A stretch of DNA of 64,000 nucleotides from Nitrosopumilus sp. (GTDB taxonomy: Archaea; Thermoproteota; Nitrososphaeria; Nitrososphaerales; Nitrosopumilaceae): NCBI GenBank assembly GCA_963662625.1, contig OY759726.1, positions 1,536,001-1,600,000 of the forward strand. The letters run 5' to 3'. A model generated the notes under the pieces. The model did not search any database. It was given only the letters and a program-made list of their open reading frames with translations, and was not told the origin of the DNA. A program made the translations under genes and the position numbers. This document shows, in pieces, positions 28,820-60,973 of the stretch (positions are counted from its first letter, which is position 1; each line of letters begins with the position of its first letter).

Positions 28820-29925
28820 GAGTGACGCTCACAAATAATTTCTCCCCTGGGAGGTCGCACTGCAGAAAAGCCTGTTGATCGCCGGATCGCCGAACCATCC
28901 ATGGACGAGACCGACAGGAAACTACGGGACCTGACGGAGGCCATGCGCGCAGGGAGGGACGCCAGGATCCGCAACAGGACGGTGGCAGTGCGCGGGGTGC
29001 CCGGCGGATACCCCGCGAGTGACGCCGCGTACTTTGCGGACGCGGGACAGCGCACCGTCCGCCTGCGGGCGGGACGGCCCGGCGACGGCGGCGCCGGCGG
29101 CCTCCGGGACATTCCCGGCAGGGGAAGGAACCCGCGCGTCCGGTACGGCCCCATGGGCGGGCCTGCAGGCAGGCCCGGCCGCACGGGCATGCCCGCGCCG
29201 GGGAGGCCCCGCGACGGGACGCGCCGGAAGCCCGGGCGCGCGCACGGCCCGCGCGGCGCGCGCGGGATCACGGGGGAACCGGGGCTCTCCCCCAAGGGGC
29301 CCACGACAGGTTACGCCGCGGCCGCAGACGACGACACGGTGCGGCGGCGGCGGGCCGACGCGGCAGGCGCGGTTGCGTGCGCAAGGAGGCGCAAGACGGC
29401 GACAGTCGCGCAGGACGGGCCCGCCTCCGCCGGGACGGGAACCGACGGCAGGAGGCTCTGGTCCCGCGCAGGGGAGGGGGCCGCCGCCGGCAGGCCCGGC
29501 AGGAGGGACAGGGCAGCCGCGTGCGGCTCCCCCGCGGCCGACGGGACGGGGCCGGTGCGGCCGTGCGGCAGGTCCGGCGGGGACACCTTCCTGACGTACC
29601 CCAGGGAGATCCGGCGCGAGCGGGGGCGCGCGCTGGTGATAACGGGCAACGCGGGGCAGCACAGGGCGGCGGACGTGAGGGAATACCTGCGGGACCACCG
29701 AGAGATCGGGGTGCCGTGCCTTCCCACCGCCACGCCGAAGCCCAGCGCGGTCGAGGCCGTGTGGAAGGAGGCAAAGTACGGGCTGGTCACGTCAAGGCAC
29801 TACGAGACGCTGGATGGACTGAAGCGTGCGGTCTCGGAGTATTTCAGGACGTGCCCGATCAGGGTGGACATCTACAAGTTCCTATACCGTTCCATCTGAA
29901 GGGAAATTTTCAATGATCGTCACTA
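28820..29925 (+). mobile_element. IS630-family element with a degenerate transposase (ORF 28901-29899)
   Basis: Inverted ends GAGTGACG/TAGTGACG...AATTTC; TA duplication at a CTAG target; HTH (GLRDIPGRGR) and DDE remnants (QDG, GNAGQH, LPTATP..SAVE..WK). Confidence 0.9.
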
Positions 29926-30258
29926 TAGTTTCTCGTTTTGTTGTTTGTAGTCAGCTCTTTCTTCCAGGCTTTGCGCAAAATTGTAAGAAGGATCTAAACA
30001 GAAAGGATAGCTCATAACAATGCCAGAAGGCCCATAACCTGTCAAGTTAGAATCGGACTCAAGAAATAAAAATTTCAGCAATATTGGATTATCTGCTACT
30101 TCGAGAACAATTTTAGAACTAATACTTTCTAAACCTTTAAACGATTCAAAAAGAACCTCCTTTTTTGTTTTAACCACGCGTACTCTTTCATTATTTTGTA
30201 GAGTAATGTCAACTTCGGTTAAGAGGTGTGGGATGACCTTTTCATAAGACAATGTCAT
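29926..30258 (-). pseudogene. 5' part of the IS630-disrupted nuclease-like gene
   Basis: Stop codon is supplied by the IS end; reading frame continues into 28819. Confidence 0.75.
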
Positions 30259-30521
30259 CTGTGAGGATTTTTAAGAATAGATTTTCCTCGTTTTGTTAAA
30301 GTCAATTTAAAATCATCGCCCTCTTCATCACTATACACCTTGTTTGATTCAATAATTTTCAGTACCAATAACTTTCTGATCTCGGTTGAAATATTATTTA
30401 CATCTCCATACCTTTCAACAAGCTTAGCGTTATTAATCAGCGTGGAATATGAAACCCCATGGTCAGAAATATACTCCATAATTTGATAAGATAGCAATGG
30501 CGGCTCGCTAATTTCACTCAT
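30255..30521 (-). CDS. Small winged-helix-like protein
   Basis: 88 aa with IRKLLVLKIIE...LTLTKRGK wing; ATGA overlap with the downstream gene; AT-rich. Confidence 0.6.
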   Translation of the reverse strand: MSEISEPPLLSYQIMEYISDHGVSYSTLINNAKLVERYGDVNNISTEIRKLLVLKIIESNKVYSDEEGDDFKLTLTKRGKSILKNPHR

Positions 30522-30683
30522 GTTGAATATTCAAAAAATTACTAATTAAATCTTCGGTAACTGTATGCTAGCCTAATAAACATTGTGTCAATTCTAGTCT
30601 TCTCTATTGTACATAAATTAGGTCGCACTAACTTGAGGAGGCTTGCAAAGGATTACTTTACACTTTACCGATCAAGAAAACCG

Positions 30684-30880
30684 ATGGTAACCAGGCTGAC
30701 CGGAAGGCAGATCAGGTACGCCGTAGCCCAGAGGCAGGAGGGGAGACCGGCTGCGGACATTGCGGCGGAGATCGGGGTGACCGTGAGGCACGCCCGGAGG
30801 CCGTACGCAGAATTCGTCATGACTGGCGCCCCCCACGCGCCGCGCAGGGCCGGGAGGAGGGCGCGCGACATGCCGTTCTC
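30684..30880 (+). mobile_element. Transposase N-terminal HTH fragment (IS481/IS3-like), degenerate
   Basis: MVTRLTGRQIRYAV...DIAAEIGVTVRHARR. Confidence 0.6.
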
Positions 30881-30949
30881 GCTCGTGAACCCGGACGGCG
30901 CCAGGTACAGCGTGTCTGGCGCGCCGGGCCCGTTGCCGGGGACGCCCTG

Positions 30950-31102
30950 CCAGGTGGCCGCCCTTCCCGCACCGCCTGCAGTGCCCGCTCTCCCTGCCGC
31001 TGCTGCATGAGGGCCAGGCGGGTCGGGACGGCGTCAGCCCGCTACTCACCCGTGTTGACCACCCAGGCGTGGTTGCCACGTGCACTGGATCTGATGATGT
31101 AC
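30950..31102 (+). mobile_element. Right-end fragment of the GTACA-ended IS family
   Basis: Homologous to 47765-47908 and 42251-42330; ends CTGGATCTGATGATGTAC. Confidence 0.7.
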
Positions 31103-31170
31103 TCAGTTGAGGGCGGCGCGGCGGATCCTCGTAGGGCCGCCGGTTGCCGACTCTCGCTAGGCGTCCGCGC

Positions 31171-31449
31171 TCACCCTACCCCGTCCCAGTCTACCTCGGG
31201 GAACATCCCCTCTATCCTCCTCTTGTCCCTGTTCACCGCGTCGATCCTGTCCCTGAGGTGCCTGGCCAGCCTCCCGTCGGCCTCGGCGGCCAGCTCCTCC
31301 TCGGCGCCCGCGATTACCGCGTTCAGCGACCTGTAGTACCTGACGTGCTCCTCCCTCGACGCGGCGGACCTGTCCTCGTCCCTCCCGCCGTCCGTGCCGC
31401 CCGCGGCGCCCCCGCCCCCGCCAGTATCGGCCGCCGTGGCGCGCCTCAC
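31171..31449 (-). CDS. Hypothetical protein downstream of EF-2
   Basis: GTG overlaps the fusA stop; EEHVRYYRSL...RIEGMFP. Confidence 0.7.
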   Translation of the reverse strand: MRRATAADTGGGGGAAGGTDGGRDEDRSAASREEHVRYYRSLNAVIAGAEEELAAEADGRLARHLRDRIDAVNRDKRRIEGMFPEVDWDGVG

Positions 31450-33638
31450 TCCTTGTCTATGAACTCGCCGGCGCCCGGGACCTCGGGGGCCAGCCCCTTC
31501 CTCTTCCTGATGTCCGCTATGGCGGCGGCGTGGATGGACTTTGGGACCTCGGTCCACTCCTTGAACGAGGTGTTCCACGTGGCGCGGCCGGCAGTCTGCC
31601 CCCTCATCTCCTCGGACAGGGTGAACGTCTCGGACGCCGGGATCTCGCCGGTCACTATGCTGGCGGCGCCCTTCTGGACCATGTCCATGACCTTCCCGCG
31701 CTTGCCTGAGAGGACAGTCGCGACGCTGCCCACGAGGTCGGTGGGGACGCGCACCTCTATGGCGAGCATGGGCTCCAGCACGGTGGTGCCCGCCGTCAGC
31801 AGGGCCCCCATGCACGCGCGCCTCGAGGCAGGCCCCAGCTGGGACAGCCCCCTGTGGGCGGTGTCCTCGTGGGGGACGAAGTGCGTGAAGACGAACTTGC
31901 AGTCCCTCATCTGCTCCCTGCACAGCGGCCCCTCCTTCATGACCTCGTCAAAGCCGGAGTTTATCGAGTCGGTGGACTCTTGCACGAACTGGACGCCCTT
32001 GGTCCCGTTGATCAGCACGTTGCCCCTGGAGTCCAGCCTCATGACCCTCTTTATCGTGTCGGTGTCCCACCCCGCCCCCTTGAGCAGGTCGGCCACCACC
32101 TTCTTGTCCTTCATGTCGCTGATCTCGCCGGTCCTCAGCATGTGCGCGATCTCCGGCTCCAGCGGCTCCACCCTCATGAATATCTTGTTGTGGCGGTTGG
32201 GAGACTTTGCCATCACCGCCTCGCAGGATCCCTTCACGGTCTCCCTGTAGTTGATGAGCGGCTCGGAGGTGACTATCTCGACCTTGGCGTCCTGGATGCG
32301 GTGGGTCGCGACGTCCAGGTGGAGGACGCCCATGCCTGCCACGATGGTCTCGCCGCTCTCGTCGTCGATCTTCACGACCAGGTTGGGGTCCTCTATGGTA
32401 AGCTGCTTCAGGACGTCCACGAGCTTCGGCAGGTCCTTGGGGTGCTTCGGCTCCACGGCGACCTGGACCACCGGCTCCGAGACGTACTTTACCCCCTCGA
32501 ACATGGGCATGCCCTTGACGGTCGAGACGGTGTTGCCCGCCCGGGCCTCGGTGAGGCCCAGCAGCGCGGGGATGTTGCCCGAGCCGAGCTCGCCGACCTG
32601 CTCCCTCTGGTTCCCCATGAAGAAGTTCACCGACTGGACGCGCCCCTCGCGCTTCTCGTCGATTATGCTGACGGTCTGCCCGTCCCTGATGGTGCCCGAG
32701 AACAGCCTCCCTATGGCCACCGGCCCGGCGGCGGGGTCGAGCACCATGTTGACTATCATCATGATGGTGGGCCCGTCGTCGCTGCACGCCAGCAGCGCCT
32801 TGCCCACGTCGGAGTCCAGGTCGCCCTTCCAGATCTGCGGGATCCTGTATGTCTGGGCCGCGTGCGGCGGCGGGTGGTGCTTTACCACCATGCCAAGCAC
32901 GGCGTCGGCCAGCGGGGCCCTCTCGACTAGATCGGGCACCTTCCCGTTCTGGTACGCGTCGATCACGTCCTTGAACGTGATGCCCTTCTCCTTCATCCTG
33001 TCCACGTTGATGGCCCACCTGTCCTTGGCGGAGCCGAACGTCACGCTGGCGTCCTGTATGGACACCTTCCACTTGTCCCTGTACTCCGGCTCGGCGTAGG
33101 TCTCCACCAGCTGGTTGAAGTTTGACACGACCCCCGCCAGCGTCTCCTGCATCTTCTCGGGCGTCAGCCTCAGCTCCTTTATGAGGCGGTCCACCTTGTT
33201 GATGAACAGCACGGGCTTCACCCTCTCCTCCAGCGCCATCCTCGTCACGGTCTCCGTCTGCGTCATGATGCCCTCCACGGCGTCGCAGACCACCACGGCC
33301 CCGTCTATCGCCCTGAGGCTCCTGATGACCCTGCCGCTAAAGTCCACGTGGCCGGGGGTGTCTATCATGTTGATCACGTACTCCCTGTCCTTCTGGGTGA
33401 AGTGCAGCGTCACGTTTGCCTGGTATATGGTGATGCCCCTCTCCTGCTCCTCCTTGTCAAAGTCCATCGCGAGCGCCTTCCCGGCCGCCGACGGCGCGAT
33501 GATCCCAGAGTACGCCAGCAGGCTGTCGCTCATGGTGGTCTTGCCGTGGTCGACGTGCGCGATCACCCCGAAGTTCCTGATCTGGTCCTTGTTCTTGATG
33601 ATCTTCAGCACCTCGGTGGTGGACTTGAACTTTGCCAT
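31446..33638 (-). CDS. fusA: Translation elongation factor 2 (aEF-2)
   Basis: AHVDHGKTT, DTPGHVDF, NKVD, diphthamide loop HEDTAHRG. Confidence 0.98.
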   Translation of the reverse strand: MAKFKSTTEVLKIIKNKDQIRNFGVIAHVDHGKTTMSDSLLAYSGIIAPSAAGKALAMDFDKEEQERGITIYQANVTLHFTQKDREYVINMIDTPGHVDFSGRVIRSLRAIDGAVVVCDAVEGIMTQTETVTRMALEERVKPVLFINKVDRLIKELRLTPEKMQETLAGVVSNFNQLVETYAEPEYRDKWKVSIQDASVTFGSAKDRWAINVDRMKEKGITFKDVIDAYQNGKVPDLVERAPLADAVLGMVVKHHPPPHAAQTYRIPQIWKGDLDSDVGKALLACSDDGPTIMMIVNMVLDPAAGPVAIGRLFSGTIRDGQTVSIIDEKREGRVQSVNFFMGNQREQVGELGSGNIPALLGLTEARAGNTVSTVKGMPMFEGVKYVSEPVVQVAVEPKHPKDLPKLVDVLKQLTIEDPNLVVKIDDESGETIVAGMGVLHLDVATHRIQDAKVEIVTSEPLINYRETVKGSCEAVMAKSPNRHNKIFMRVEPLEPEIAHMLRTGEISDMKDKKVVADLLKGAGWDTDTIKRVMRLDSRGNVLINGTKGVQFVQESTDSINSGFDEVMKEGPLCREQMRDCKFVFTHFVPHEDTAHRGLSQLGPASRRACMGALLTAGTTVLEPMLAIEVRVPTDLVGSVATVLSGKRGKVMDMVQKGAASIVTGEIPASETFTLSEEMRGQTAGRATWNTSFKEWTEVPKSIHAAAIADIRKRKGLAPEVPGAGEFIDKE

Positions 33639-33771
33639 ATCCGGCAACGAATTCCTTTATCTATTAAATCTTGTGAGGAGTGGGATGCGATCCCGGGCCG
33701 TCCAGGACGCCGCCCCGGCAGGCGCCGCCCCGGCCGAGCCGTTTTTGTAGCAGTTGATCCAACCATACCCC

Positions 33772-34002
33772 ATGGGGCTGCTCTACACGAAGTTCTACCT
33801 GGACTTCGAGCCAGCGGAATGGAGGCAGCTCTCCACCGAGCCCGTGGTGTTCGAGGCCGCCGGCGACGGGGTAAGCCTGGAGATCAGCGACACGTCGCAG
33901 AACTCCTACAAGCTGAAGTTCAGGAAGGGCGGCAGGATACGGGTGTACCGGGTGGTCGGCAAGTTCCGCCTGACGTGGGACGACGACGACCTGGCCGAAT
34001 AA
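33772..34002 (+). CDS. Conserved hypothetical protein
   Basis: 76 aa, MGLLYTKFY...FRLTWDDDD. Confidence 0.75.
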   Translation: MGLLYTKFYLDFEPAEWRQLSTEPVVFEAAGDGVSLEISDTSQNSYKLKFRKGGRIRVYRVVGKFRLTWDDDDLAE

Positions 34003-34033
34003 CAATATTAGGGGCCGCACCGTAACCATACGC

Positions 34034-34267
34034 ATGGCACTCAAGGAGGACGTGGAGGCGGTGCTGCGCGACTTTGACGCGGCCACCTCCGACATGGCAG
34101 TCGGGCTCCTCAGGCAGATCCAGCCCATGTTCCGGAGCGATCACACCAAGGTCTACCTGGAGAGAAAGATCCGCCGGGTCGAGGAGGCCGTGGACGAGGA
34201 CGCGAGGAAGGAGCTGTGCAAGACGCTGCTCCCGTACCTGGACTGGTACGCGCAGGGAAGCTCCTAG
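34034..34267 (+). CDS. Conserved hypothetical protein
   Basis: 77 aa, LCKTLLPYLDWY. Confidence 0.75.
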   Translation: MALKEDVEAVLRDFDAATSDMAVGLLRQIQPMFRSDHTKVYLERKIRRVEEAVDEDARKELCKTLLPYLDWYAQGSS

Positions 34268-34284
34268 CCGCACGTCCCCGGGCC

Positions 34285-35587
34285 CAGTAGCCGAAAATGT
34301 ACTGGCCGCCAGACGCCTGGTTGGGCCCCGCCCGCCCGCCATCCGCCCCGCCCGCGGCCATCCCCGACATGCGCCCCGGCATGATCGCCAGCCGGACCGG
34401 GGCGGTGTCGCGGCTCCCGTACCGCCCGGCAGACCACGCCGCCGACACCGTCCACGGGTTGCACGTCACCGGCGCCATGAAGAACAGGAACGTCCTGACG
34501 GAGGCGTCCGGGCTGGCGGTCCCGGGCCCAGCCTTCCCGGCGTCCCCGTGCCCTGGCCCTGTCCCCCGCCCCTTCCCGTACCCGTCTGGGACGTCGGCGG
34601 CGCGTACCGCCAGCCGGCGTCCGCGTTGGTGGCGTACGCCAGGTGCCACCTCCTGCGCGTCCCCCGGGTCCCGCCAGCCCCCGCCCTCCCCCTTCGGGAC
34701 GATCACCGGGGCGGACGGCTCCCTTGCCCTCCCGTACCGGGGCGTCGGGACGTGCGGGGAGACGGCGTCCCTCTCCCCCCGGCCGTGCTCCCCCGCGGCC
34801 CCCTTCACGCCGGCCGTCCGCGACGCGGGCATGACGAGCCCGTGGTCCGGCCCGGACAGCTCCGCGACTGCCCCTGCCGGGAAGAACCCCCTGCCCGGCA
34901 GGACCAGCCCGGGGCGGGCGCCCAACACCGCGCAGTCCCCCAGCAGTTCACGCACGGCCTCGGCCCCGGTTGGCCCCTTCTTGGGCCTGCACGTCGGGTC
35001 CTGCCCCGGCCCGACCGCCACCTTGGCGGCGGCGTGCCCCCCGGAGCGCGACGTACCGGACCTGTGCCTCGCGCGCACCAGCTGCCCCTCCAGGGCCGCG
35101 GGATCCCTGCCGCGCCTGGGCATCGGGCGGTCGCCGGTGGCCGCCACGCAGCGGATCCGCCCGGGGATCCCCTGCCGCCTGGCATCCAGCACGGTGGCGG
35201 CGAGGGCGCCGGAGCGCCGCTCCCGCATGGAGTCCTGGCCGCTGCACGCCCCTCGTATCCCGGAGGGCACCCGCGCCGACGACGGCATGCGGCCCCGCGC
35301 GTGGCGCACGGCGAGCGTCCCGGTGGCGCCAGCACGCGCACGGGGCCGGCCGTGCCGCACGCGGCGTTGTGCCGGCGGGAGAACCCGATGCCCGCCCTCC
35401 CCGGCAGCCCGGGCAACGTTTCAAGCGCCTTGCCGGCCACCCTGGGCCGGCGCCCCCGCGGTCCGTTTTGGTGAGTCATGGTGGGTTACGGGGGCGCCCG
35501 ACCCGTTGGTTTTTCTGCCCAAAGCGTTCCAGTATCGGGCCAAGACATGTCGGCCGGCGTCCAGCCGGGGTACATTTTCAACTACTA
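34285..35587 (-). mobile_element. ISH3-family element, full length, degenerate transposase
   Basis: 18-bp inverted ends CAGTAGCCGAAAATGTAC / TAGTAGTTGAAAATGTAC; 5-bp target duplication GGGCC at 34280-34284 and 35588-35592; remnants of DRGF and YRKRWGIETGY motifs. Confidence 0.88.
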
Positions 35588-35632
35588 GGGCCGCTTGCCG
35601 CCAGCGGATCGACCTGCACGCGCAGGGGGCAC

Positions 35633-36061
35633 CTAACCGCACGCGCCCATTGGGATCGACTTCCTGGCGCGCTCGATCAGCGCCAGGTCGCCCCTCGCGG
35701 CATCGGCGTCCCCCACCAGGCCCGCAAAGTACCCGTTCCCGGCGTCCAGCGCCTTCCGGATGTCGGACTCGTAGCATGACAGGGCCTTGTCCAGGAACCC
35801 GCAGTCGCCCCGGAGCGACTCCATCTGTCCCCCGTCGTGCAGGGCGCCGTGGATCCTTCCTATGGCCTCGTCGATCTTCGGCACCGTCCTAGCGGCTTCC
35901 TGGCTCAGCACCGACGCGAACATGGCGGCCGCGCCGCTCAGTTCGGGGCTCCGGCCCAGCGTCTTGAGCCTCTTCCTGTAGTGCCTCAGGGCCCTTATGG
36001 CTATCTCGTACCCGCCCTCGTGCTTGAGGAATATGCCGCCCAGCCAAACCCGTCCAGCCAA
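35633..36061 (-). CDS. Hypothetical protein
   Basis: HEGGYEIAIRALRHYRKRL...; start uncertain. Confidence 0.75.
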   Translation of the reverse strand: MAGRVWLGGIFLKHEGGYEIAIRALRHYRKRLKTLGRSPELSGAAAMFASVLSQEAARTVPKIDEAIGRIHGALHDGGQMESLRGDCGFLDKALSCYESDIRKALDAGNGYFAGLVGDADAARGDLALIERARKSIPMGACG

Positions 36062-36119
36062 CCCCTTCGGTCTGCCCGCGGCGTTTTATAATTTTTGGGC
36101 CCCCGGTGGCTTGAACCTC

Positions 36120-36346
36120 TCGTTGCGGGACCCGCGGGGCGTCCTGGGTGGCGTTCTCCGCCCCCGGCGTGGCGCTCTCCACTTCCAGCACCGCAACCCT
36201 GGCATGCATCTTGGCAACCTCCCTGCGCAGGACCGTGGCCTCGGAACCAGACATGCCGTGGCTTGGGAGGTGCAGGATCAAAGCGCAGCGATCTAGATTT
36301 GTGGCTTGTCCGCGTAAATTTGCCTGAGCTGGATCTGAGCATGTAC
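36120..36346 (-). mobile_element. Left-end fragment of the GTACA-ended IS family (IS66-like coiled-coil start)
   Basis: GTACATGCTCAGATCCAG end, then MSGSEATVLRREVAK...; homologous to 42700-42922. Confidence 0.65.
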
Positions 36347-36373
36347 CCGCGACACGGGGGCGCGGGGCGGGCC

Positions 36374-36601
36374 CTACGTCCCCGGATCCGCGTCCGGCAC
36401 CACCCGGTTGCCGCTGATCAGGCGCAGCAGCATCCCTGCGATCGACACCCCTATGCCCATCAGCCCCACGAACGTGCCCGAGTGCTTTACCATGCGGAGC
36501 CCCGGCTCCATGTCGGGCTTTGCCTGGATGGAATAGAACAGCGCGAGGCCAGCCGCCACCATCGCGACGCCAACAAGGATCGTCTTTTTCCCGATCTCCA
36601 T
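36374..36601 (-). CDS. Small two-helix membrane protein
   Basis: Two hydrophobic segments; KHSGTFVGLMGIGV. Confidence 0.75.
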   Translation of the reverse strand: MEIGKKTILVGVAMVAAGLALFYSIQAKPDMEPGLRMVKHSGTFVGLMGIGVSIAGMLLRLISGNRVVPDADPGT

Positions 36602-36672
36602 CCACCTTCGTCCGCGCCCCTGCCTAAAAAACCCCCGCGGCCGGGCGGCGGGCGCGGGTGTTCGGCGAGGTG

Positions 36673-37290
36673 CTACGCCCTGACCGAGATCTCCTCGCCG
36701 TTTCCGACGGGGCACGTTATCGTCTTGATCCCGGGCTTCCCCCTTATGTGCCTGGCGAGCCTCCCCATGTCCTTCCTGTACTTTTCCGGGTACAGCATGT
36801 TGTCGGTCATGATCACACCGCCCCTGCGGACCAGCGGGACCGTCAGGTCAAAGTACCGTATGGCGTTCTCCTTGTCGGCGTCGATCAGCGCAAAGTCGAA
36901 GAATTCCAGGAACCCCCCGTCCCCGTTAAGCCTGCCCAGGACGTCCGCCGCTTCGCCCTCCTCCACGTCGATGATCTCGGAGACGCCCGCGTCCGCGAAA
37001 TTCTTCCGGGCCCGGTCGATCTTGGCCCGGTCCCTCTCGACGGTGACGATCATGCCGTGGCCGCGCCTCACGGCGCCGGCGCACCACAGAGTGGAGTACC
37101 CCGCCGACGTGCCTACCTCCAGGACGTTTTTCGCCCCCATGACGGTCAGGAGCACGTCTATCAGCTCGCCCGTCTCCCTGGTTATGGCCAGCATCCGCTC
37201 CCCCGCCGGCACGTCCACCTTCCGGGCCTTCTCCAGGGCGGATCTCTTGCCGAGCCTGCCGAGGACCCTCGATATGCCGTCGCCTTCCAT
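36673..37290 (-). CDS. Class I SAM-dependent O-methyltransferase
   Basis: LEVGTSAGYS, FDFALIDADK, DNM. Confidence 0.92.
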   Translation of the reverse strand: MEGDGISRVLGRLGKRSALEKARKVDVPAGERMLAITRETGELIDVLLTVMGAKNVLEVGTSAGYSTLWCAGAVRRGHGMIVTVERDRAKIDRARKNFADAGVSEIIDVEEGEAADVLGRLNGDGGFLEFFDFALIDADKENAIRYFDLTVPLVRRGGVIMTDNMLYPEKYRKDMGRLARHIRGKPGIKTITCPVGNGEEISVRA

Positions 37291-37721
37291 TCCCGTCTTG
37301 TGGCTGGCGCGGCCTAATATCTAGTGTGGGCGCGCCGGATCCGGGGCCGCCGCCGGCGCGGAATTCAACGCGGCAAAAACGCGGCGGGCCTTTCGGGGCC
37401 TGCATCTCTTCGCCGGGACCGTGGGCGCGTTCTTGCGGGGAGCCAAGTTTTTCCGCCGCGGGCTTGGGGGCAGCGCGTTACCCCAGCCCGCGGGCCTGCC
37501 ATCCTAAACCCGCACGTCGCGGGCCTTGGAGGAGCCGCTGATAATGCCCCTGCCGCGGGCGCCCGCCATGGCGCCGTCCATATCCCGTGCCATGGCCAGC
37601 CCGCGGGCGTCCTTCCCCGGGGCTTTGTGGCGCAGTTGCTGGCGGCCGCCGCCGACTCAGCCCCTTGCACGAACCGGGCCTCATCCATGACCGGTAAACC
37701 CGGGGACGCGCTTCCTGGCAG

Positions 37722-38453
37722 CTAATCGGTCCCGTGCGCTTGCGGGGCGAGGCGCGGGTCTATCGGCTGCAGCGCGACCGTCCTTCCCACGATGTTGCCG
37801 TTTGCGTCCTTCTCGTCCGTGGACGTGAGTATCGTCGGGAACTCGCTCCCGTCCTTCCTGCGCATCCATATGACTGCCTTGTCCCGGAACCCGGCCCTCC
37901 AGTTCTCCATGTTCGCGTGGAGGTTTCCCTTGCTCCTGGATGCGGTGTGCTCGTAGAGGCTGATTCCTATCACCTCGTCCTTCGTGTAGCCCATGTGGCT
38001 CAGGTACGACTCGCTGCATGCCACGATCGTGCCCATGTAGTCCACGGACCTGCGCATGACGTCGGGCTCCTCGTAGTCCGTCCTCTCGTCGATCCTGTAG
38101 ATATTCTGGATCTTCCTGATCGACGCGACGTCTCTCAGCTCGGTGTCTATGCCCACGACCTTCTCGCCGTCATACTTTTTCCTGACGGATCTCAGCACGG
38201 TCATGACCTCGCCGGTCTTCGTCTTCAGCTGGGTCTTGCGGGATATGTGCGTTGCAGGCTCGACCTTCCACGACTTGAGCATGTCGACTGACTCCTGGCG
38301 GTACTCGTCGGTGGTGTGATCAAGTATGGACGCGCCTATCACCTCCTCGATCGTGTAGCCCAGCCTGACGGCATAGTACTCGTTGCAGTCCTCTATCACG
38401 CCGTCCAGGTCGATTGACCTGTACATGATGGGTATTGCGGCCCTTATCTTCAT
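37722..38453 (-). CDS. Tandem PAS-domain protein without an output domain
   Basis: Two LGY/MGY.k.EVIG.S..dH PAS repeats and an RRKDGS PAC motif. Confidence 0.85.
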   Translation of the reverse strand: MKIRAAIPIMYRSIDLDGVIEDCNEYYAVRLGYTIEEVIGASILDHTTDEYRQESVDMLKSWKVEPATHISRKTQLKTKTGEVMTVLRSVRKKYDGEKVVGIDTELRDVASIRKIQNIYRIDERTDYEEPDVMRRSVDYMGTIVACSESYLSHMGYTKDEVIGISLYEHTASRSKGNLHANMENWRAGFRDKAVIWMRRKDGSEFPTILTSTDEKDANGNIVGRTVALQPIDPRLAPQAHGTD

Positions 38454-38687
38454 TTGAATCAGGTTGGATCGTGCCAATTATAAATATTACACCCCGGGCT
38501 GCGCGTGAGGCCGCCACCCCGCGCCATCGGGGAGTTTCCCGTGGGCCCCTCCCCGCGGCGAGCCGGGAGCGCGGGCAGGCGCATCCGCCGCGCCGCAAAC
38601 GCGGCCGCGCGGCACGACGGCGGGATGGAAGCGGCGGGTGCGCCCGCGCGGGATAAATGGTTTTATTCTAACGACGCGGTGTCTGTC

Positions 38688-40172
38688 ATGATGAAGCTGT
38701 TAGACAGCCGGTTCCGCATCCTGCTCATCCTGGTCTTCAGCACGATGTCGGCGTTTGCCGTAGAGATGTACTTTAGCGTCATCTCCAACAGCATGGCGCT
38801 GGCAGTCGATAGCGTGCACACCCTGATGGACGCCGTGGTAGTGTTCGTCTCGATCATCGCGGCCAGGGTGGCGATGAGGCCCGCCGACGAGAAGCACAGT
38901 TACGGCTACGGGAAGATCGAGCCCCTGGGCTACATGCTGTGCGGCATCGCCATAATCGTGCTCTCCGGCCTGTTCATCTACGAGTCCGCCAACAGGCTGC
39001 AGGCCCCGCCCGTGATCCCGCCCCAGTCCATGATAGACGAGTGGGCGCACGTGGACGTCGTGGCCGCCCTGTTCGCCCCAGCCGACGGGATCCACCTGTC
39101 GCTGATAGGGGTGTGGGGAGGGGTGTACGTGATACTGACGGACGTCTTCAAGATCTACGTGCTGCAGAGGGCCATCAAGGGGTTCGGCGGCGCCACCTTC
39201 AAGTCGGACAGGCAGCACTCATTCATAGACATATCCGCGACGACGCTGACCATATCCAGCATACCGATCACGTTCTTTGGCTTCTACTACATGGACTCGG
39301 TGGCGACGCTGGTGCTGGGCGTGCTGCTCGGGCTGATCAGCATAAGGATCTCGTACAAGGCGGCGCAGGAGCTGCTGGACGTGACGTCGCCCACCATGGT
39401 CAACGAGATCAAGACCATCATACAGTCGATGCCCGAGGTCCTCAGGGTGGGGCCCGTGATGCTGCGGCGGTCCGGGGACAAGCTGTTTGCCGACGCCACC
39501 GCGGTCGTGCGGGGTGACACCAGCGTGGACGCGGCGCACGACCTGAGCGAGGAGATCGAGCGCAGGGTCAAGGACAAGGTCACCACCGGGCCGATCGAGG
39601 AGGATCACAGCCACGGCCTGGCAGAGGAGATCAAGGACGCGATGATCACCATCCGCGTGGAGCCCGACTGGACGGACGTTCCCATAGAGTCGAAGATCGT
39701 CGAGATCGCGAAGACCGTCGACGAGGTGCTCGACGCCAGCCACGCCAGCACGCACAAGATAGACGAGAAGATATACGCGGACCTGCGCGTCAAGGTGGAC
39801 AAGGACACCTCGCTTGCGGCCACCTACGCGATCTCCAACAGGATCGAGGCGCGGATAAAGGACGGGCTGCCGGGGATCGAGCGCACGACCATCCGCCTGG
39901 AACCGCACGACGACCTGGCAGACAAGCCGATCCAGGAGGACTTGGACACGGAGCAGCTGATCAGGTCCATACTGGACAAGCATCCGGAGATACTGGGGAC
40001 GATAAAGATAATATCGCTGAAGTTCGGCAACGTCTACAAGATAGACATAGACTGCATGCTCGACGGCGAGGACACGATCACGCAGACCCACCAGGTGCTC
40101 ACCTCCATCGAGTACGACATAATAAAGGAGATCAAGAACGCGATCATCACCATACACCCCGTCCCGGTATAG
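38688..40172 (+). CDS. Cation diffusion facilitator transporter with three C-terminal dimerisation domains
   Basis: SMALAVDSVH..D, PADEKHSYGYGKIE; repeated I.I..EP ends. Confidence 0.9.
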   Translation: MMKLLDSRFRILLILVFSTMSAFAVEMYFSVISNSMALAVDSVHTLMDAVVVFVSIIAARVAMRPADEKHSYGYGKIEPLGYMLCGIAIIVLSGLFIYESANRLQAPPVIPPQSMIDEWAHVDVVAALFAPADGIHLSLIGVWGGVYVILTDVFKIYVLQRAIKGFGGATFKSDRQHSFIDISATTLTISSIPITFFGFYYMDSVATLVLGVLLGLISIRISYKAAQELLDVTSPTMVNEIKTIIQSMPEVLRVGPVMLRRSGDKLFADATAVVRGDTSVDAAHDLSEEIERRVKDKVTTGPIEEDHSHGLAEEIKDAMITIRVEPDWTDVPIESKIVEIAKTVDEVLDASHASTHKIDEKIYADLRVKVDKDTSLAATYAISNRIEARIKDGLPGIERTTIRLEPHDDLADKPIQEDLDTEQLIRSILDKHPEILGTIKIISLKFGNVYKIDIDCMLDGEDTITQTHQVLTSIEYDIIKEIKNAIITIHPVPV

Positions 40173-40197
40173 CCCGCCTGGGGCCGGGGCGCCGCGC

Positions 40198-41373
40198 TCA
40201 GGTGTCGGGCACCTTGTACCACTTCCTCGGCATGAGGAAGCGCTTGACGACCAGCGCCGTGCCGGTCAGGTAGACCATGATGCCGACCGGCTCCACCCAG
40301 TTCTGGCTGCCGCTGCCCGCCGTGATCCCGAGCGCCGGCTCCACCACGTACATGAACACGACGCCCGCCATGAGCGGCGCCATCCCGACGAAGAACAGCA
40401 TGAGGGTGCCGGTGTCCCTGATGGCCCTGAGCAGGTCGCGGTACGACCCGTGCGGCTTTTTCCACCTGCCCGGGCCGACCCACGTCTGCATGCCCCCGAC
40501 GTACCAGTACACCATCCCCTGCAGTATCATCGCGCCTATTATGTTGCCGAGGGTCACGGGGACGAGGTTCTTGAACCAGGCCTCCCCCCACGTATAGTCG
40601 GCGCCGGCCCATATCCCGGCCGACAGCGCGAAGTGGTTCACTATGCTGTGCTCGAACCCTATGGCAAAGAACACGGACACCGGGATCCCGATCAGGAGGA
40701 TCTTGGAGATGACCTCCTTGGTCCTGTACGCCCCCCAGACGCCCATGGCGATCAGCCAGTTCGCGAAGATCCCGCGGTACAGCAGCTCCTCCCACGTGTG
40801 CTCGTTGACCTTCTTGTTGCCGATGTCGGCGATGACGGTCATCAGGTCCGATCCTATGGCGCCGGCCTGGCCGGCGCCGATTATTATCATCCACCCTATG
40901 ACGAACCCGGCCATCCAGTGGCCCGCGTGCGTGATCGACCACTCCCAGAGGACCTCCCTCCACCTGACCCTGTTGGTCATCATGGCGATCGAGGCGGTCA
41001 TGTAGTCGCCCGTCACCAGGTTCGAGCCGTAGAGTATCACAAGGACCAGGGCAGAGAAGCCGAAAACCATGAACGAGAGGAACTGGCCCAGCCCGAGGGA
41101 CAGGTCCTCGGCGACCGAGAACATTATGGCCCAGGCCAGGAATGCCGCAAAGGCCAGGTAGGCCGTCGCCTGCCACCCCATGATCAGGCCCTGGGCCGGG
41201 TTCACCTTGGTCTTGGCCACGCCCAGGGTGCTCAGCTCCCTGATTGTCCCGGCTATGTCGAACAGCCCCGTCGTCAGGCGCGGGGGGGACTCGCCGCCAT
41301 CGTCCCGCTCCGGAGCGTCGTCCCCCCCGGACGCGCCTTCGCGCCCCGCCGGAATGCCAGTCTTGTCACTCAA
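40198..41373 (-). CDS. Formate/nitrite transporter (FNT) family channel with C-terminal extension
   Basis: LVTGD, GIFANWL, GFEHSIVN, VTLGNIIG. Confidence 0.9.
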   Translation of the reverse strand: MSDKTGIPAGREGASGGDDAPERDDGGESPPRLTTGLFDIAGTIRELSTLGVAKTKVNPAQGLIMGWQATAYLAFAAFLAWAIMFSVAEDLSLGLGQFLSFMVFGFSALVLVILYGSNLVTGDYMTASIAMMTNRVRWREVLWEWSITHAGHWMAGFVIGWMIIIGAGQAGAIGSDLMTVIADIGNKKVNEHTWEELLYRGIFANWLIAMGVWGAYRTKEVISKILLIGIPVSVFFAIGFEHSIVNHFALSAGIWAGADYTWGEAWFKNLVPVTLGNIIGAMILQGMVYWYVGGMQTWVGPGRWKKPHGSYRDLLRAIRDTGTLMLFFVGMAPLMAGVVFMYVVEPALGITAGSGSQNWVEPVGIMVYLTGTALVVKRFLMPRKWYKVPDT

Positions 41374-41405
41374 TTAGCCAACCCGTATAACCCCGCGTCA
41401 CTATA

Positions 41406-41783
41406 TTAGATTGGCGGTGCGCGGCGCGCCGGGGGAGGCCCGCCGCCGGGCGGCCTTGCCATGTCGTAGAGCGCGCCGCAGAAAGAGTCAAGCCTGGAGG
41501 GCGGCACGCCGTCGAACCACGTCAGCTCCCCGTCCACCCGGCTCCCGGCGCGGGGGGCTCCGGACGGACGGAGCCGCGACTCCTCCGCCTCGAAGAGGGC
41601 GGCTATCCCCTCCATCTGGCCGGCTGACAGGGGGGCGCCGCACGTGGCCATGTCGACCTGGACCGCGTAGTTGCCGGTGCCGGGATCGCGCCTGGCCTTC
41701 ACGAAGGGGACGCCCAGGTGGGAGCACCGGCGGAAGAACCTGTCGCGTTCGGGCGCGTTCGAGTCGGCGATGAACTTCTCCAT
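41406..41783 (-). CDS. Hypothetical protein
   Basis: 125-aa ORF. Confidence 0.7.
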   Translation of the reverse strand: MEKFIADSNAPERDRFFRRCSHLGVPFVKARRDPGTGNYAVQVDMATCGAPLSAGQMEGIAALFEAEESRLRPSGAPRAGSRVDGELTWFDGVPPSRLDSFCGALYDMARPPGGGPPPARRAPPI

Positions 41784-41822
41784 GGAGTGTGGTCTGCGGC
41801 CTCACAGATACGTCTTGCGGGG

Positions 41823-42200
41823 CTAGATGCCGGCGGTAATCCTCTTGATCCTGGTGATGATGCGGATCTTGGTGCTTATGGGCATCTCGGGCTCCATCGT
41901 GAAGTAGATGATGTTCCTCCTGGTGTACACCACCATCTGGGTCACCTTCTCCCGCTCCACGTGGACGTACCTGACCTTGCCGAGCGAGCGGTCAAACTCC
42001 CTCCTCATGGAGCGCCTCTGCGCTACCTGCATGCAAAAGTGCTCCTCCTCCCTCTGCGACTTTAGCGACGTCTTGCCCTCCTTCATGATGGCCTCGCGTA
42101 TGTTGCCCTTCGGATCGATGATGGCGGCGAACCTCATCTTGCGGTCCAGGCCGATGATTGCCTCGACTGTGGCCAGGAGGTCGACTTTGGCGCTTGTCAT
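41823..42200 (-). CDS. DUF6659-like (roadblock/profilin-like) thaumarchaeal protein
   Basis: MRFAAIID.KG...EFDRSLGKVRY...REKV. Confidence 0.75.
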   Translation of the reverse strand: MTSAKVDLLATVEAIIGLDRKMRFAAIIDPKGNIREAIMKEGKTSLKSQREEEHFCMQVAQRRSMRREFDRSLGKVRYVHVEREKVTQMVVYTRRNIIYFTMEPEMPISTKIRIITRIKRITAGI

Positions 42201-42250
42201 CACCGTCTGGGGGTTACCGGCTAAATATAATCTATTGAGATGGTGCCGCG

Positions 42251-42922: not shown

Positions 42923-43018
42923 GGCGCCTCTCCCCGGCGCCGCCCTCCCGCGGTGGAGCGATCCGCCCCCCGCGGGCCGACCAGTAGATTCTTATCTAAA
43001 ATTTTTTTCTGGAAGCCT

Positions 43019-43843: not shown

Positions 43844-43880
43844 GCCGGAAACAAGGTTTATCCGTGGACCTGCGATCCAG

Positions 43881-44750: not shown

Positions 44751-44751
44751 G

Positions 44752-46520: not shown

Positions 46521-46739
46521 GGGTCATGCTCCCAACGCATTCTATAAAATGCTTGCCAATCACTTGCACATAGCCGCGGACAGTCGATCCGGGATCATGA
46601 TACGGTGCCCAAGCCCGCTCTGTGGGAGACGGATTCCGGCACATTTCATTTAGTGCATGTTCGGGCTCCGGTGTTGCAGGCACACAAACTGCGCCCAGCT
46701 TCCCCATGGCAAGCGTGAATTCGGCGTGCACCACGGGCC

Positions 46740-47751
46740 CCGCCGCGTGCCGTCGTCGGCGTGGTTACTGTCCAGGACAGGTGGGGCGTGCCGGGACCCC
46801 GGCACCATGGAGGGCAGGTGCAGGGACGCCCTGCGCCCCGCGGTGCGCGGGGCCCGTCGCGCCGGGATCATCGGGGGGGGGGGGCGTCCCACGCCGTGGC
46901 CCTAGACTATCACCCGATGCCCAGGCACGGCAGGAACCCCGCGACCAGGGAGGAGCGGCCGGTGCGCGCGAGGCACGGGAACGGGACGCCGCGCTCCGGG
47001 GGGCACGCCGCCGCCAAGGTGGCGGGCGGGCCGGGGCCGGACCCGGCGCGCGGGCCCAAGAAGGGGAGCAGGGGGGCCGGAATCGTGCGCGGACTGCCGC
47101 GTGACTGCGCGGGGGTGGGCGTCCGCCCCAGGCTGGTCCTGCCGGGCCGGGGGTTCTTCCCGGCAGGGGCAGTCGGGGAGCTGCCCGGGCCGGGCCACGG
47201 GCTCGTCATGCCCGCGTCGCGGACGGCCGGCGCGAAGGGGGCCGTGGGGGAGCACGCCCGCGGGGAGAGGGCCGCGGCGTCCCAGCACGCCCGGCGCCCC
47301 GGGACGGGAGGGCCAGGGAGCCGTCCGCCCTGGCGATGGTCCCGAAGGAGGGCGGGGACGGGCGGGGCCCGGGGGACGCGCGGGAGGGGCACCTGGCGTA
47401 CGCCACCAACGCCGGCGCCGGCGGGGCGGTGCGCGCCGCCGACGTCCCCGACGGGCACGGGAAGGGGCGGGGCACGGGGACGGGGCACGGGGACGCCGAG
47501 AAGGCCGGGCCCAGGACCACCGGCACGAACCCCCCAGTCAGGACGTTCATGTTCTTCATGGCGCTGGTCATGCACGACCCGTGGATGATCTCGGCGGAAT
47601 GGTCCGCCGGGCGGTGCGGGAGGCGCGACGCCGCCCCGGTCCGGCTGGCGATCATGCTGGAGTACGTGGCGAGGCTGGCCGCGTGCGCGGCGTACGGCGG
47701 CCGGGCCTGGCCCAACCAGGCGTCTGCCGGCCAGTACATTTTCAAGTACTG
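46740..47751 (+). mobile_element. ISH3-family element, 5'-truncated and degenerate
   Basis: Homologous to 34285-35290; right end GTACATTTTCAAGTACTG followed by GGGCC. Confidence 0.85.
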
Positions 47752-47764
47752 GGGCCGCCCTGCC

Positions 47765-47908
47765 CGGTGGCCACCCTCCCCGCGCCGCCTGCAGTGCATG
47801 CCCTCCCCGCCGTGGCAGCATGAGGACCGGACGGGGCGGCGCCGGCCGGCCGCATCGCCCGTGCCGGCTAGGGGGTGGCCGCCGTGTGCCCTGGACCTGA
47901 TGATGTAC
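47765..47908 (+). mobile_element. Right-end fragment of the GTACA-ended IS family
   Basis: Ends CTGGACCTGATGATGTAC; matches 30950-31102. Confidence 0.7.
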
Positions 47909-47956
47909 GCCGGCGCGAAAGAAAGCCCTTTATTATGCCCCGGGATGATTCCAACC

Positions 47957-48550
47957 ATGTCAATGTACTTCCCGGGCGCCACGGCCGTGGGCGTCACGTT
48001 CGAGGGCGGCCTGGTGCTTGCCAGCGAGAAGAGGATCGCCCTGGGCAACTTTCTCCTGAGCAAGTCCGCCAAGAAGACGTTCCCGATCACCCCCAGGGTG
48101 GGGGCCACATGCGCGGGGCTGGTGGCGGACATGCAGCTGCTCTCGCTCCAGATAGCCGCGCTGGCCAAGATACGCAAGATGGAGCTCAAGCGCGACATCC
48201 CGCCCAACACCGTCGCCAAGATGATGTCCAACATGATGTACGAGAGGAGGTACTTCCCGCTGCTCACGCAGGTGATAGTGGGCGGGGTCGTGGGCCAGCC
48301 CGTGATGTACACGCTCGACCCGCTGGGCTCGGTGCTCCCGGACCGGTACGCCGCGGTGGGCACCGGCGCCGAGATGGCTCTGGGGGTCCTGGATCCCGGG
48401 TTCCGGGAGGGGATGGGCGAGGACGACGCGGTCGGCCTGGCAAAGAAGGCCGTGCGCTCGGCGTCGCTGCGCGACTCCGCAAGCGGCGACGGGCTCGACG
48501 CCATGGTGATCACGGCAGACGGGGCACGGGAGTTCACCGAAAAGATCTAG
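47957..48550 (+). CDS. psmB: Proteasome subunit beta
   Basis: GATAVG, ASEKR, GLVADMQ, DPLGS, RDSASGDG. Confidence 0.95.
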   Translation: MSMYFPGATAVGVTFEGGLVLASEKRIALGNFLLSKSAKKTFPITPRVGATCAGLVADMQLLSLQIAALAKIRKMELKRDIPPNTVAKMMSNMMYERRYFPLLTQVIVGGVVGQPVMYTLDPLGSVLPDRYAAVGTGAEMALGVLDPGFREGMGEDDAVGLAKKAVRSASLRDSASGDGLDAMVITADGAREFTEKI

Positions 48551-50524: not shown

Positions 50525-50532
50525 GGTACGGG

Positions 50533-52173: not shown

Positions 52174-52182
52174 GACTATATT

Positions 52183-57268: not shown

Positions 57269-57356
57269 TTTTCTAGTTCCGCGTGCCTGGTTATTAAGTT
57301 GAAATATCCGGGGCGCTGGACAAAGGTAATATAGAAACCGGCGGGCAGGTTCTAGC

Positions 57357-58499: not shown

Positions 58500-58503
58500 G
58501 CCC

Positions 58504-59529: not shown

Positions 59530-59612
59530 CGCGTTGTGTGTCGCACGGCGCGCTATTTTGTGTTTGCGCCGGATCGAGTCAGTACAAATACCTCCAGTCC
59601 CAACACCATGAC

Positions 59613-59804
59613 GTGAGGGGTTGGCTGTTCTGGGCCGGGGTCGGGTTCGTCATAGGGGGGCTGGTAAGCTACTCCATGGCCCTCGCAGTCCCTGGCCCCG
59701 GGTTCCAGGCGGACGTGTCGGGGTACGCCCTGGGGTGGATGGGGGCGGGCGCGGTGCTGCTGGCAGCCGGCCTGGTCCTGAAGCCGTCAAAAGCGGCTGG
59801 GTGA
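59613..59804 (+). CDS. Small two-helix membrane protein
   Basis: Two hydrophobic helices; start uncertain. Confidence 0.6.
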
Positions 59805-59857
59805 CCCCCGGCGGCCCCCGTGATCTGCTTTATTACGGTGTTGCCCAGACTAGCATT

Positions 59858-59942
59858 GCCAGGTTAGCCAAGCGGTAAGGCGGCCGTCTCGAAAACGGCT
59901 ACGCGCAAGCGTGCAGGGGTTCGAATCCCTTACCTGGCGCCA
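59858..59942 (+). tRNA. tRNA-Ser(CGA)
   Basis: Acceptor stem GCCAGGT/ACCTGGC, anticodon arm GCCGT-CTCGAAA-ACGGC, long variable arm, GTTCGAATC, encoded CCA. Confidence 0.96.
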
Positions 59943-60269
59943 TACCATTCCAAGACGGCCCGAGGGGCCCGGGGCCGCACGGTACGTCGGCATGGCGCGG
60001 GGCCGCAAGCGGCACCGGCGGGAGTTCATGGCGAATAAGGTGGGCGGCACGAAAAAAATTCCTGGGACTGGCCTATTCGGCGGTCTGCGCCATGCCGACG
60101 TTTTACGGGCTGGGCTGGACGGCGGAACCGCACGGGATCCACGGGGGCGTCCCGCCCGGCACCATGCCGGTCCTGATCGCGGCGTACGCGCTGAGCGGCA
60201 TCACCGCGTTTCTTGCGATCAGGTGCCTCCGGTAGGCCGGCGCGGCCGCGGGCGGGAACGCGGCCACGG

Positions 60270-60465
60270 GGCCGGCCCCTGACTGCCCCATCGATCTCCC
60301 CCGCGACGAACGCCTTGCCCCTGTGGCGCACGTCTGCCCGTTCCAGCATCCCCGCGTCCACCGGTTTCATGACCGCGTTTTTTGCGGACGGGCACGTGAC
60401 GCCGAGGCGCCGCATCGCGCCGGGGACGGTGACGTGCGGGTTTTGAGAAAAGGCGGGCCCCCCGT
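60270..60465 (-). pseudogene. Relic of a C-terminal wHTH resembling that of Fic-family proteins
   Basis: FSQNPHVTVPGAMRRLGVTCPSAKNAVMKPVDAGMLE resembles F.NPYITIP....LGVTY.SA...V.KL.D.GIL. Confidence 0.55.
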
Positions 60466-60469
60466 GGCG

Positions 60470-60973
60470 GAGGCGGCCCGCAACGGCGACGCGGGGCTGC
60501 CGGCCGGCACGGCCGGCGTCGGCGCGCTCGCCGCGGTGCCGACGGCCCCCGGGATGGGGCCGCCTCCAGGGTCCAGTGGGCCAAGGCAGGCGGCGTCGTG
60601 GGCCGGGCCGTGCCCGGCCGCATGCCGGCCGGGGAACCTGCCGCACGCGGGGAGGATCAAGGGGATGGGCCCCGGCAGCCTGGCCAGCCGGGCCGTGCGC
60701 GGGGCCGCGGACACCGCCGCGCGGCACGACGCCGGGACGGAGGCCGCGTACGCGTCAGCGCGCCGGAGGCACGCGGACAGGCACGGGCCGGCCGTAATCG
60801 CGGCGGCCCACAAGGCGGTCACCATGATGCGGCACGGGCCGGCCGCCAGGACGCCCCGAGGATCCAGCAACGAGGGGCCGTGCCGGCGCAGGCCGGCCGG
60901 GACGGGGAAGGCGCGCCGGGGGCGGCCACCCGCGCTGCCCGCATCCGGATCATCTTGCCAGCGCCAGCCATGA
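60470..60973 (+). mobile_element. IS110-family (IS116/IS902) transposase C-terminal relic
   Basis: ASWAGPCP...PGN....GRI (from SWAGLxP...SG), AA..AARHD, A.IAAAHK. Confidence 0.75.

Follow-up and report, generated by a model that had tools for sequence, protein, structure and literature searches.

The window analysed here, 64,000 nucleotides of Nitrosopumilus sp. (assembly GCA_963662625.1, contig OY759726.1; G000:C1:1536001-1600000), carries the remains of several insertion sequences (IS), and the mode of decay of these dead elements is the subject of this report. The genome (G000) is a single contig of 1,858,698 bp, 99.5% complete and with a GC content of 63.4%; genome sizes in the Nitrosopumilaceae are mostly 0.8-1.9 Mb. 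Four relics stand out in the window: an IS630-family relic at 28817-29929 (+ strand; 1113 bp, GC 0.72, 500-bp peak 0.81), a full-length ISH3-like relic at 34276-35593 (- strand; GC 0.76), a truncated ISH3-like relic at 46721-47757 (+ strand; GC 0.78, 500-bp peak 0.83) and a fragment of an IS110-family relic at 60455-61057 (+ strand; 603 bp, GC 0.78). Short ISH3-like fragments, recognised by blastn and protein matches, lie at 42327-42760 (- strand; genome 1578327-1578760). From the letters of the window, a first-pass annotation had proposed that such dead DNA decays by one-way A>G and T>C hypermutation.

The five degenerate peptides on which that proposal drew are all present where it placed them: YGKGRGTGPGH (34548-34580, -) and APVTCNPW (34452-34475, -) in the 34.3 kb ISH3-like copy, HGKGRGTGTGH (47456-47488, +) and ALVMHDPW (47561-47584, +) in the 47.4 kb copy, and WAGPCP (60599-60616, +) in the IS110 fragment. 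The ancestral motifs are supplied by the genome itself: intact ISH3-like copies have YRKRWGIETGYRD and ALVMYNLW, and intact IS110 has WAGLCPVV. Compared with the least-mutated IS630 copy, the window relic (28901-29899) reads VITGNAGQHR in place of VIMDNAGQHR, so that the reported change of the catalytic DN to GN is seen directly, together with the W>R and L>P changes. The 34.3 kb relic retains the ends CAGTAG...CTACTG with flanking GGCCC, and the proteasome gene adjoining the 47.4 kb relic is intact (Pfam PF00227, E=1.7e-42). Relics score low against family profiles: the IS630 relic reaches 57.3 bits (least-mutated copy 111.3) against an NCBIfam cut-off of 100, and the IS110 fragment 31.6 bits vs. 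242.9 for the intact copy. No Pfam or NCBIfam match was obtained for the relic at 34276-35593, whose intact counterpart matches ISH3 at E=1.4e-33. Heavy relics generally lack such matches, and the analysis was hence based on intact copies from the same genome.

Reference copies were available for each family. The IS110 element is 1422 bp long and has one intact copy (genome 1194284-1195705, GC 0.631) with a 363-aa open reading frame (ORF); close relatives of its transposase were found only in Nitrosopumilaceae records. The ISH3-like element is ~1350 bp long, with the ends and GGCCC flanks given above, and occurs in at least 16 copies with GC contents of 0.685-0.778. Further families with decayed copies are IS630, IS5 and a second ISH3-like family. 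The least-mutated copies pass the NCBIfam cut-offs for IS110 (242.9 vs. 140 bits), IS630 (111.3 vs. 100) and IS5 (173.2 vs. 140). Scores for ISH3 (NF033541; 116.3 and 93.2 bits) lie under the curated cut-off of 225, hence the ISH3-like designation, and Pfam DDE_Tnp_1 matches this element at 32 bits vs. a cut-off of 23. Repeats of at least 250 bp at 74% or greater identity cover ~233 kb of the genome. Public data consist of three runs of one study, kept as contigs, with the same sequence in all three; long public contigs over unique parts of window 28001-48000 differ by 0-2 letters, and the differences listed, all inside repeats, are taken to be paralogous copies.

In IS110, IS630, IS5 and the two ISH3-like families, nearly every difference between dead and intact copies is an A>G or T>C change, which confirms the proposed one-way decay in a form stronger than claimed. 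IS110 relics were compared with the intact IS110 copy. In d719, one of two identical relics, 22 A>G and 22 T>C changes account for all 44 differences, with no insertion or deletion. The corresponding figures are 47 and 45 of 94 differences in d476 (92/94), 110 and 92 of 216 in d17, the heaviest relic (202/216; GC 0.772), and 46 and 45 of 118 in the window relic at 60455-61057. A>G changes are matched in number by T>C changes, so neither strand is favoured. For the ISH3 relics, 1167 sites at which seven subfamily-A and two subfamily-B copies agree served for polarisation, and A>G and T>C changes made up 44/47 differences in c1644 and 70/77 in c1428. The 34.3 kb copy (45 A>G and 44 T>C of 150 polarised differences) and the 47.4 kb copy (32 and 34 of 99) lie in or close to a different subfamily, and their counts therefore include ordinary divergence.

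The other families follow the same pattern. Relative to the least-mutated copy, the IS630 relic in the window has 75 transitions from A or T to G or C (W>S), 21 in reverse (S>W) and 21 transversions; W>S and S>W transitions number 65 vs. 7 in IS5 and 70 vs. 9 in the second ISH3-like family. When copies are pooled, W>S transitions make up 1064 of 1305 differences in IS110, 281 of 399 in IS5 and 165 of 214 in the second ISH3-like family; because many changes are common to several copies, these pooled figures do not represent independent events. All 44 changes of d719 occur in d17, for example, as do 92 of the 98 changes of d1063. IS copies are mosaic, and many changes recur from copy to copy, even across subfamilies. 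The most GC-rich copies are truncated fragments (GC 0.77-0.79).

The direction of change was assessed with six Nitrosopumilaceae transposases encoded in other genomes. Where the protein sequences of relic and intact IS110 copy diverge, these agree with the intact copy at 30 vs. 1, 59 vs. 1 and 127 vs. 4 positions. Reversed polarity, with C>T changes at CNNG sites, is thereby ruled out, and the outgroup homologues overwhelmingly carry the ancestral residues, not those of the relics. The ancestral reading frame contains no stop codon in five of the six IS110 relics, as the first-pass annotation had observed of relics in the window.

Balanced spectra were seen in controls and not in relics. ISH3 subfamilies A and B differ by 40 vs. 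41 transitions and ~80 transversions, and a 7.4-kb non-IS duplicate at 97% identity shows 48 vs. 39 transitions, 110 transversions and a single TA<>CG pair. Non-IS duplicates are coding and under selection, so a missing signature there says little about mutational input. The 7.4-kb duplicate (genome 652423-659842 and 681569-688994) itself consists of one ORF of 2421 aa whose start resembles a signal peptide. As for host genes split by old relics, none of the heavily mutated relics was located within a recognisable host ORF in a test of relic junctions, and no single-copy non-IS pseudogene came to light. In a genome of 41% GC, IS copies show 10 vs. 10 transitions, and in G041 all IS copies are identical. 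Within the present genome, seven ISH3 copies at 98.5% or greater identity and four identical ISH3-like copies are essentially without the mutation signature. A transposase-specific error was ruled out, since four IS superfamilies behave alike.

Susceptibility to change depends on neighbouring bases. In the lightest relic, adenines were changed at 24/100 sites with T at position -3; with A, C and G there, the rates were 2/116, 13/132 and 5/171. G or C at +1 favours change, and A at -1 or +1 disfavours it: adenines followed by A were changed at 0/81 sites in a light copy and 11/81 in a heavy one, those followed by G at 23/156 and 87/154. These counts bear out the earlier observation that A and T within A/T runs tend to survive. 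Adenines preceded by T are not especially changed in d17 (25/60, vs. 80/204 after C and 77/171 after G). The TpA context of the Bigelowiella natans type was therefore not found, and the strong signal is T at -3.

The relics carry a new signature, in which 5′-TNNA-3′ sites convert jointly to CNNG. Counted as both ends changed, T only, A only and none, TNNA sites in five IS110 relics give 11/1/1/37, 18/2/2/28, 22/2/2/24, 29/5/3/12 and 27/2/2/16 (Fisher's test on the first relic, p = 3.8e-9), and pooling over four families gives 362/56/99/1027. Other pairs at the same 3-bp spacing are weakly coupled (A..T, 3/3/3/46) or uncoupled (A..A, 0/6/1/70; T..T, 1/0/5/35). Inner CG favours conversion (20 sites ever converted vs. 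2 never converted), as do inner CC and GG (39 vs. 11), and inner GC does not (4 vs. 8). The two adenines of a TNNA site lie on opposite strands, and independent lesions at them would segregate at replication. The both-or-none pattern would thus imply that both changes arise on one strand or that fixation of the two pairs precedes replication.

Several observations touch on this signature elsewhere. Two unclassified repeat families, one of ~1042 bp (genome 1674241-1675282, 1247126-1248167, 720906-721946 and 1364420-1365464) and one of ~1480 bp (621396-622878, 401255-402726 and 1050907-1051718), show many paired TA<>CG differences at 3-bp spacing. In G042, another high-GC member of the Nitrosopumilaceae, a 596-bp IS110-like fragment (L052 vs. 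L027) has 74 W>S vs. 6 S>W transitions, with A>G exceeding T>C 2:1 and TNNA sites uncoupled (1/5/5/8); a TNNA-type context may thus differ between lineages. Three otherwise intact ISH3 copies (genome 1275476-1276825, 780292-781640 and 339824-341180) share one TGGA>CGGG double hit that turns the catalytic LLD into LPG, and it seems that a dead copy bearing LPG was mobilised again.

Host genes are shifted towards GC as well. Over 102 orthologues (39,775 codons), GC contents at codon positions 1, 2 and 3 (GC1/2/3) are 0.583/0.434/0.887 here vs. 0.503/0.380/0.415 in G002, which with G001 represents AT-rich genomes of the same genus (G001 and G002, ~42% GC, completeness 97% and 99%); orthologous loci in the two have GC contents of 37-45%. 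A lineage-wide AT>GC shift is therefore a fact, whatever acts on IS copies, and the link drawn by the first-pass annotation between relic decay and the high GC of the lineage is plausible in light of this contrast in GC3. At four-fold degenerate sites the shift is saturated, with A in G002 kept as A here at only 451 of 5157 sites. Given this saturation and a DNA identity of only 67-74% to G001 and G002, no neutral host spectrum can be polarised. Host synonymous positions show an association at TNNA spacing, with a Mantel-Haenszel odds ratio of 2.75 for T3..A3 (3.77 with inner CG) compared with 1.2-1.8 for other arrangements, and no excess with inner GC.

Taken together, these data lead us to favour, with moderate confidence, a lineage-wide process of AT>GC transitions that erodes any DNA released from selection. 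A genome-wide mutational pressure would convert A:T to G:C by transitions, preferring isolated A:T pairs with G/C flanks, and the elementary event would often be double, with both end pairs of a 4-bp TNNA block changing together to CNNG. In genes, selection would keep A and T at codon positions 1 and 2, and third positions would be pushed to ~89% GC. Once an IS copy dies, selection would end and the leftover A and T would erode in place, one way, towards ~85-90% GC, with no stop codons created during erosion. Relic decay and the genome-wide GC shift would then plausibly be one process, mutational in nature and not a fixation bias. The enzymology might involve misdirected T:G repair, an enzyme that targets A or T on both strands, or a biased deoxynucleoside triphosphate (dNTP) pool combined with a next-nucleotide effect; if skewed to G/C, a pool of the last kind would account for the preference for isolated, G/C-flanked A and T.

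Intact IS genes are host-like in GC by codon position (GC1/2/3 of 0.56/0.47/0.91 for IS110 and 0.63/0.56/0.91 for ISH3, vs. 0.61/0.46/0.87 for host genes), and dead copies would thus lose only what selection held. We counted it in favour of a general process that IS110, IS630, IS5 and ISH3-like elements behave alike despite different transposition chemistry, and the high GC of truncated fragments fits accumulation in place over time. The T3..A3 association in host genes and the W>S excess of the G042 fragment, as opposed to the balanced IS copies at 41% GC, also speak for it. Quantitatively, the pooled IS110 relics, with 1064 W>S transitions and 162 S>W changes, give a per-site ratio of ~12, which would correspond to an equilibrium GC of ~0.92, near the host GC3. 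The least constrained host sites match the composition towards which relics move: GC3 is 0.887, relics reach 0.78-0.83, and the two spacers range over 0.85-0.88 and 0.50-0.65. The first of these, a unique spacer between two convergent genes at 9968-10094 (no strand assigned; 85-88% GC), is not part of the finding; no other non-IS, non-coding stretch looked at equals the relics in GC content.

A number of results weigh against such a lineage-wide process. At four-fold sites, A>G (2828) and A>C (1782) outcomes show transversions nearly as common as transitions, which saturation may explain. Host synonymous TNNA pairs are not depleted (864 observed, observed/expected 1.68; TCGA, 3.99), coupling conditioned on the state of the relative is weak (odds ratio 1.66 overall, 0.92 with G or C at both inner positions), and the orthologue comparison reveals no coupling of outcomes (ratio ~1.1). 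The second convergent spacer (18791-19106) has a GC content of only 50-65%. The intact IS110 copy has 0, 1 and 3 reverse transition differences relative to relics with 44, 92 and 202 forward ones, so its lineage barely changed meanwhile; its non-coding ends may be constrained. W>S : S>W ratios in single relics (44:0, 92:2 and 202:5, i.e. at least 40, vs. ~12 in the pool) are far above the ratio implied by GC3. Finally, GC peaks of 0.78-0.83 match the four window relics exactly. Within these peaks, T-S-S-A tetramers (TSSA, where S is G or C) number 0-4 per 500 bp and CSSG 47-64, as in the IS630 relic (1 and 62) and at 47001-47500 inside the 47.4 kb relic (0 and 64), and at their edges GC drops to 0.34-0.68.

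Most of these points would be accommodated by directed editing of IS or foreign DNA, for example by a two-fold symmetric enzyme acting on double-stranded DNA and inactivating copies in place or on transposition intermediates, a reading that we hold as a tentative alternative. It would account for undepleted host TNNA pairs, weak conditioned coupling, the modest GC of the second spacer, the extreme single-relic ratios and the near absence of reverse differences in intact IS110. It would also suit the confinement of GC peaks and TSSA loss to the relics; the sharp edges, though, are expected in any model, since relic flanks are mostly functional genes. Flanks of heavy relics contain 16-24 TSSA per kb vs. 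5-10 inside. Pristine and heavily changed copies coexist, one IS110 relic having 44 changes and nothing else, and catalytic residues are hit, as in the LLD>LPG change of three otherwise intact ISH3 copies. Such editing would parallel fungal repeat-induced point mutation (RIP), APOBEC hypermutation of retroviral DNA or TpA hypermutation in B. natans, in which A>G/T>C hypermutation of viral inserts offers a eukaryotic precedent (bioRxiv 10.64898/2026.01.13.699255).

The same reading meets several difficulties. Almost no mutation is seen in the seven near-identical ISH3 copies, the four identical ISH3-like copies or the 7.4-kb duplicate (97% identity), and mutated copies have been recopied unchanged, which indicates that mutation is not tied to each transposition. 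A genome-wide GC3 of 0.887 requires a general AT>GC force in any case, and the rate ratio, if taken from the pooled copies, is compatible with GC3. One CDA-fold deaminase gene is present in each of the five genomes compared, AT-rich ones included; none of the five has a dCTP deaminase match, HhH-GPD glycosylases number one here vs. one or two elsewhere, and none of the candidate repair and deaminase genes compared over these genomes is lineage-specific. It is conceivable, if doubtful, that TNNA>CNNG is the footprint of an undescribed two-fold symmetric activity on double-stranded DNA, serving either as an IS-killing defence or as the engine of a rise from ~42% to 63% GC. As opposite-strand lesions would segregate into different daughter duplexes, such an activity would have to turn the A:T pairs at the two ends of a 4-bp block into G:C in a single step, completed ahead of replication.

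GC-biased gene conversion among IS copies, in which G.T and A.C mismatches in heteroduplexes are repaired to G:C so that W>S changes spread and S>W changes are erased, is an unlikely source of the pattern. Only transition mismatches would be affected, which fits the spectrum, and the mosaic copies and changes shared between copies and subfamilies suggest that conversion, one of the causes named in the first-pass annotation, may have helped to spread changes. It is unable to create them, paired TNNA>CNNG hits included, and it leaves the T..A-specific coupling at 3 bp unexplained when A..A and T..T are uncoupled. Intact copies are unconverted, and each relic has private changes (e.g. 34 vs. 57 between two IS630 relics).

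RIP-like targeting of repeats, another of the suggested causes, is unneeded and fits poorly: long near-identical duplicates, among them ISH3 copies and the 7.4-kb duplicate, lack the signature, intact IS copies have host-like GC3, the pooled rate ratio would by itself yield roughly the GC3 of the host, and in place of C:G>T:A changes in a CpA context we find A:T>G:C in TNNA. A mutator arising from missing mismatch or hypoxanthine repair alone is very improbable, for searches for MutS_V, NucS_C and EndoV gave no match in G000 (99.5% complete) or in AT-rich G001 and G002. The NucS or EndoV loss suggested earlier therefore does not explain the GC shift; in the two further high-GC genomes, a single partial match to NucS was obtained. 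Mismatch-repair-deficient Pseudomonas fluorescens does show 97.5% transitions, with AT>GC slightly above GC>AT (ratio 0.67), but this is a ~1.5-fold bias compared with at least 12-fold here, and paired TNNA hits are apparently not part of its spectrum in the available text of that study (PMC4316635). All explanations beyond those set out above, together with repair loss, are improbable even jointly.

The surroundings of the relics add some observations in their own right. AT-rich stretches (GC 0.34-0.48) occur at window 22001-24000, 28001-28500 and 30001-30500, directly adjoining the 81% GC relic; they may be recent acquisitions, or A/T runs resisting the process. At window 16697-18790 (+ strand), a 697-aa ORF with long collagen-like G-X-Y repeats forms a 1.85-kb island at 79% GC. 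Of 200 islands with a GC content of at least 0.76 in the genome, 116 are unique and one is this collagen-like gene, and 79 unique islands of high GC and low periodicity were listed; the collagen-like gene illustrates that high GC alone is no relic marker. Beside the right end of the intact IS110 copy, 69 bp (genome 1195706-1195765) recur at seven other places at 98.6-100% identity, adjoining IS5 copies (e.g. genome 8408-8476, 46072-46140 and 731065-731133), which suggests that the IS110 element inserts at the ends of IS5 elements. ISH3-like remnants in AT-rich G002 (contigs C55, C105, C59 and C31; loci L008 and L013) contain TAA and TGA stops, unlike most relic matches in the present genome, and their decay looks different from that seen here.

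Variation in prokaryotic GC content is an old open question: bacterial mutation is described as universally AT-biased, and a universal bias of this kind would demand selection or biased conversion to explain GC-rich genomes (PMC2936535). Sponge-associated Thaumarchaeota have been reported to have GC contents of 47-67% vs. 32.5-34.2% in free-living relatives, with more numerous transposases and the cause unexplained (PMC7848895). Here, in unconstrained archaeal DNA, AT>GC changes outnumber the reverse at least 12-fold, in a genome ~20 GC points above its same-genus relatives. Dead IS copies thus constitute a natural mutation-accumulation record in which spectrum, context and double-hit signature are directly measurable, which helps to focus the hunt for the enzyme or nucleotide-pool defect at work. 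Were the two-fold symmetric activity real, it would be, as a defence, a prokaryotic analogue of RIP, the first of its kind and reversed in polarity; as an engine, it would have raised a sponge-type thaumarchaeal lineage from ~42% to 63% GC.

Neither one-way A:T>G:C decay of IS elements nor TNNA double hits turned up for any prokaryote in our literature searches, which did not cover supplementary files. Under directional mutation pressure, or amelioration, unconstrained DNA moves towards the neutral base composition of its genome. The relics (0.78-0.83) likewise drift to the least constrained composition (GC3 0.887), but they do so from AT to GC, almost entirely by transitions and with many TNNA>CNNG double hits. 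Fungal RIP introduces C:G>T:A transitions in a CpA context. It resembles the decay described here in its one-way transitions, context preference, graded loads, confinement to mobile elements and inactivation of copies, and differs in that the relics show the opposite polarity and a TNNA context, near-identical IS copies and the 7.4-kb duplicate are untouched, and there is no sexual cycle. APOBEC3 enzymes deaminate C on single-stranded DNA with a bias to one strand. They too leave graded, context-specific loads of one-way transitions in integrated mobile-element copies, whereas here A>G equals T>C (22/22 and 47/45) and hits are paired across both strands.

In mismatch-repair-deficient bacteria transitions dominate and flanking bases matter, as in the relics; the two transition directions make up 0.479 and 0.496 of all substitutions in the spectrum reported, in contrast to the single direction that dominates here (PMC4316635). 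The nearest known case is B. natans, in which 230 of 231 mutations in viral inserts are A>G or T>C, and the discussion of which names RIP (bioRxiv 10.64898/2026.01.13.699255). Both systems combine almost exclusive A>G/T>C change with a self-complementary T...A context and an effect on non-host DNA. B. natans, however, is a eukaryote with single hits at adjacent TpA and an otherwise AT-biased genome, whereas in the present archaeon T and A lie two bases apart and change jointly, and the whole genome is shifted to GC. Set beside these systems, our finding reads as directional mutation pressure recorded in dead DNA and bearing a signature that is new; an editing activity of an altogether new category may instead be at work.

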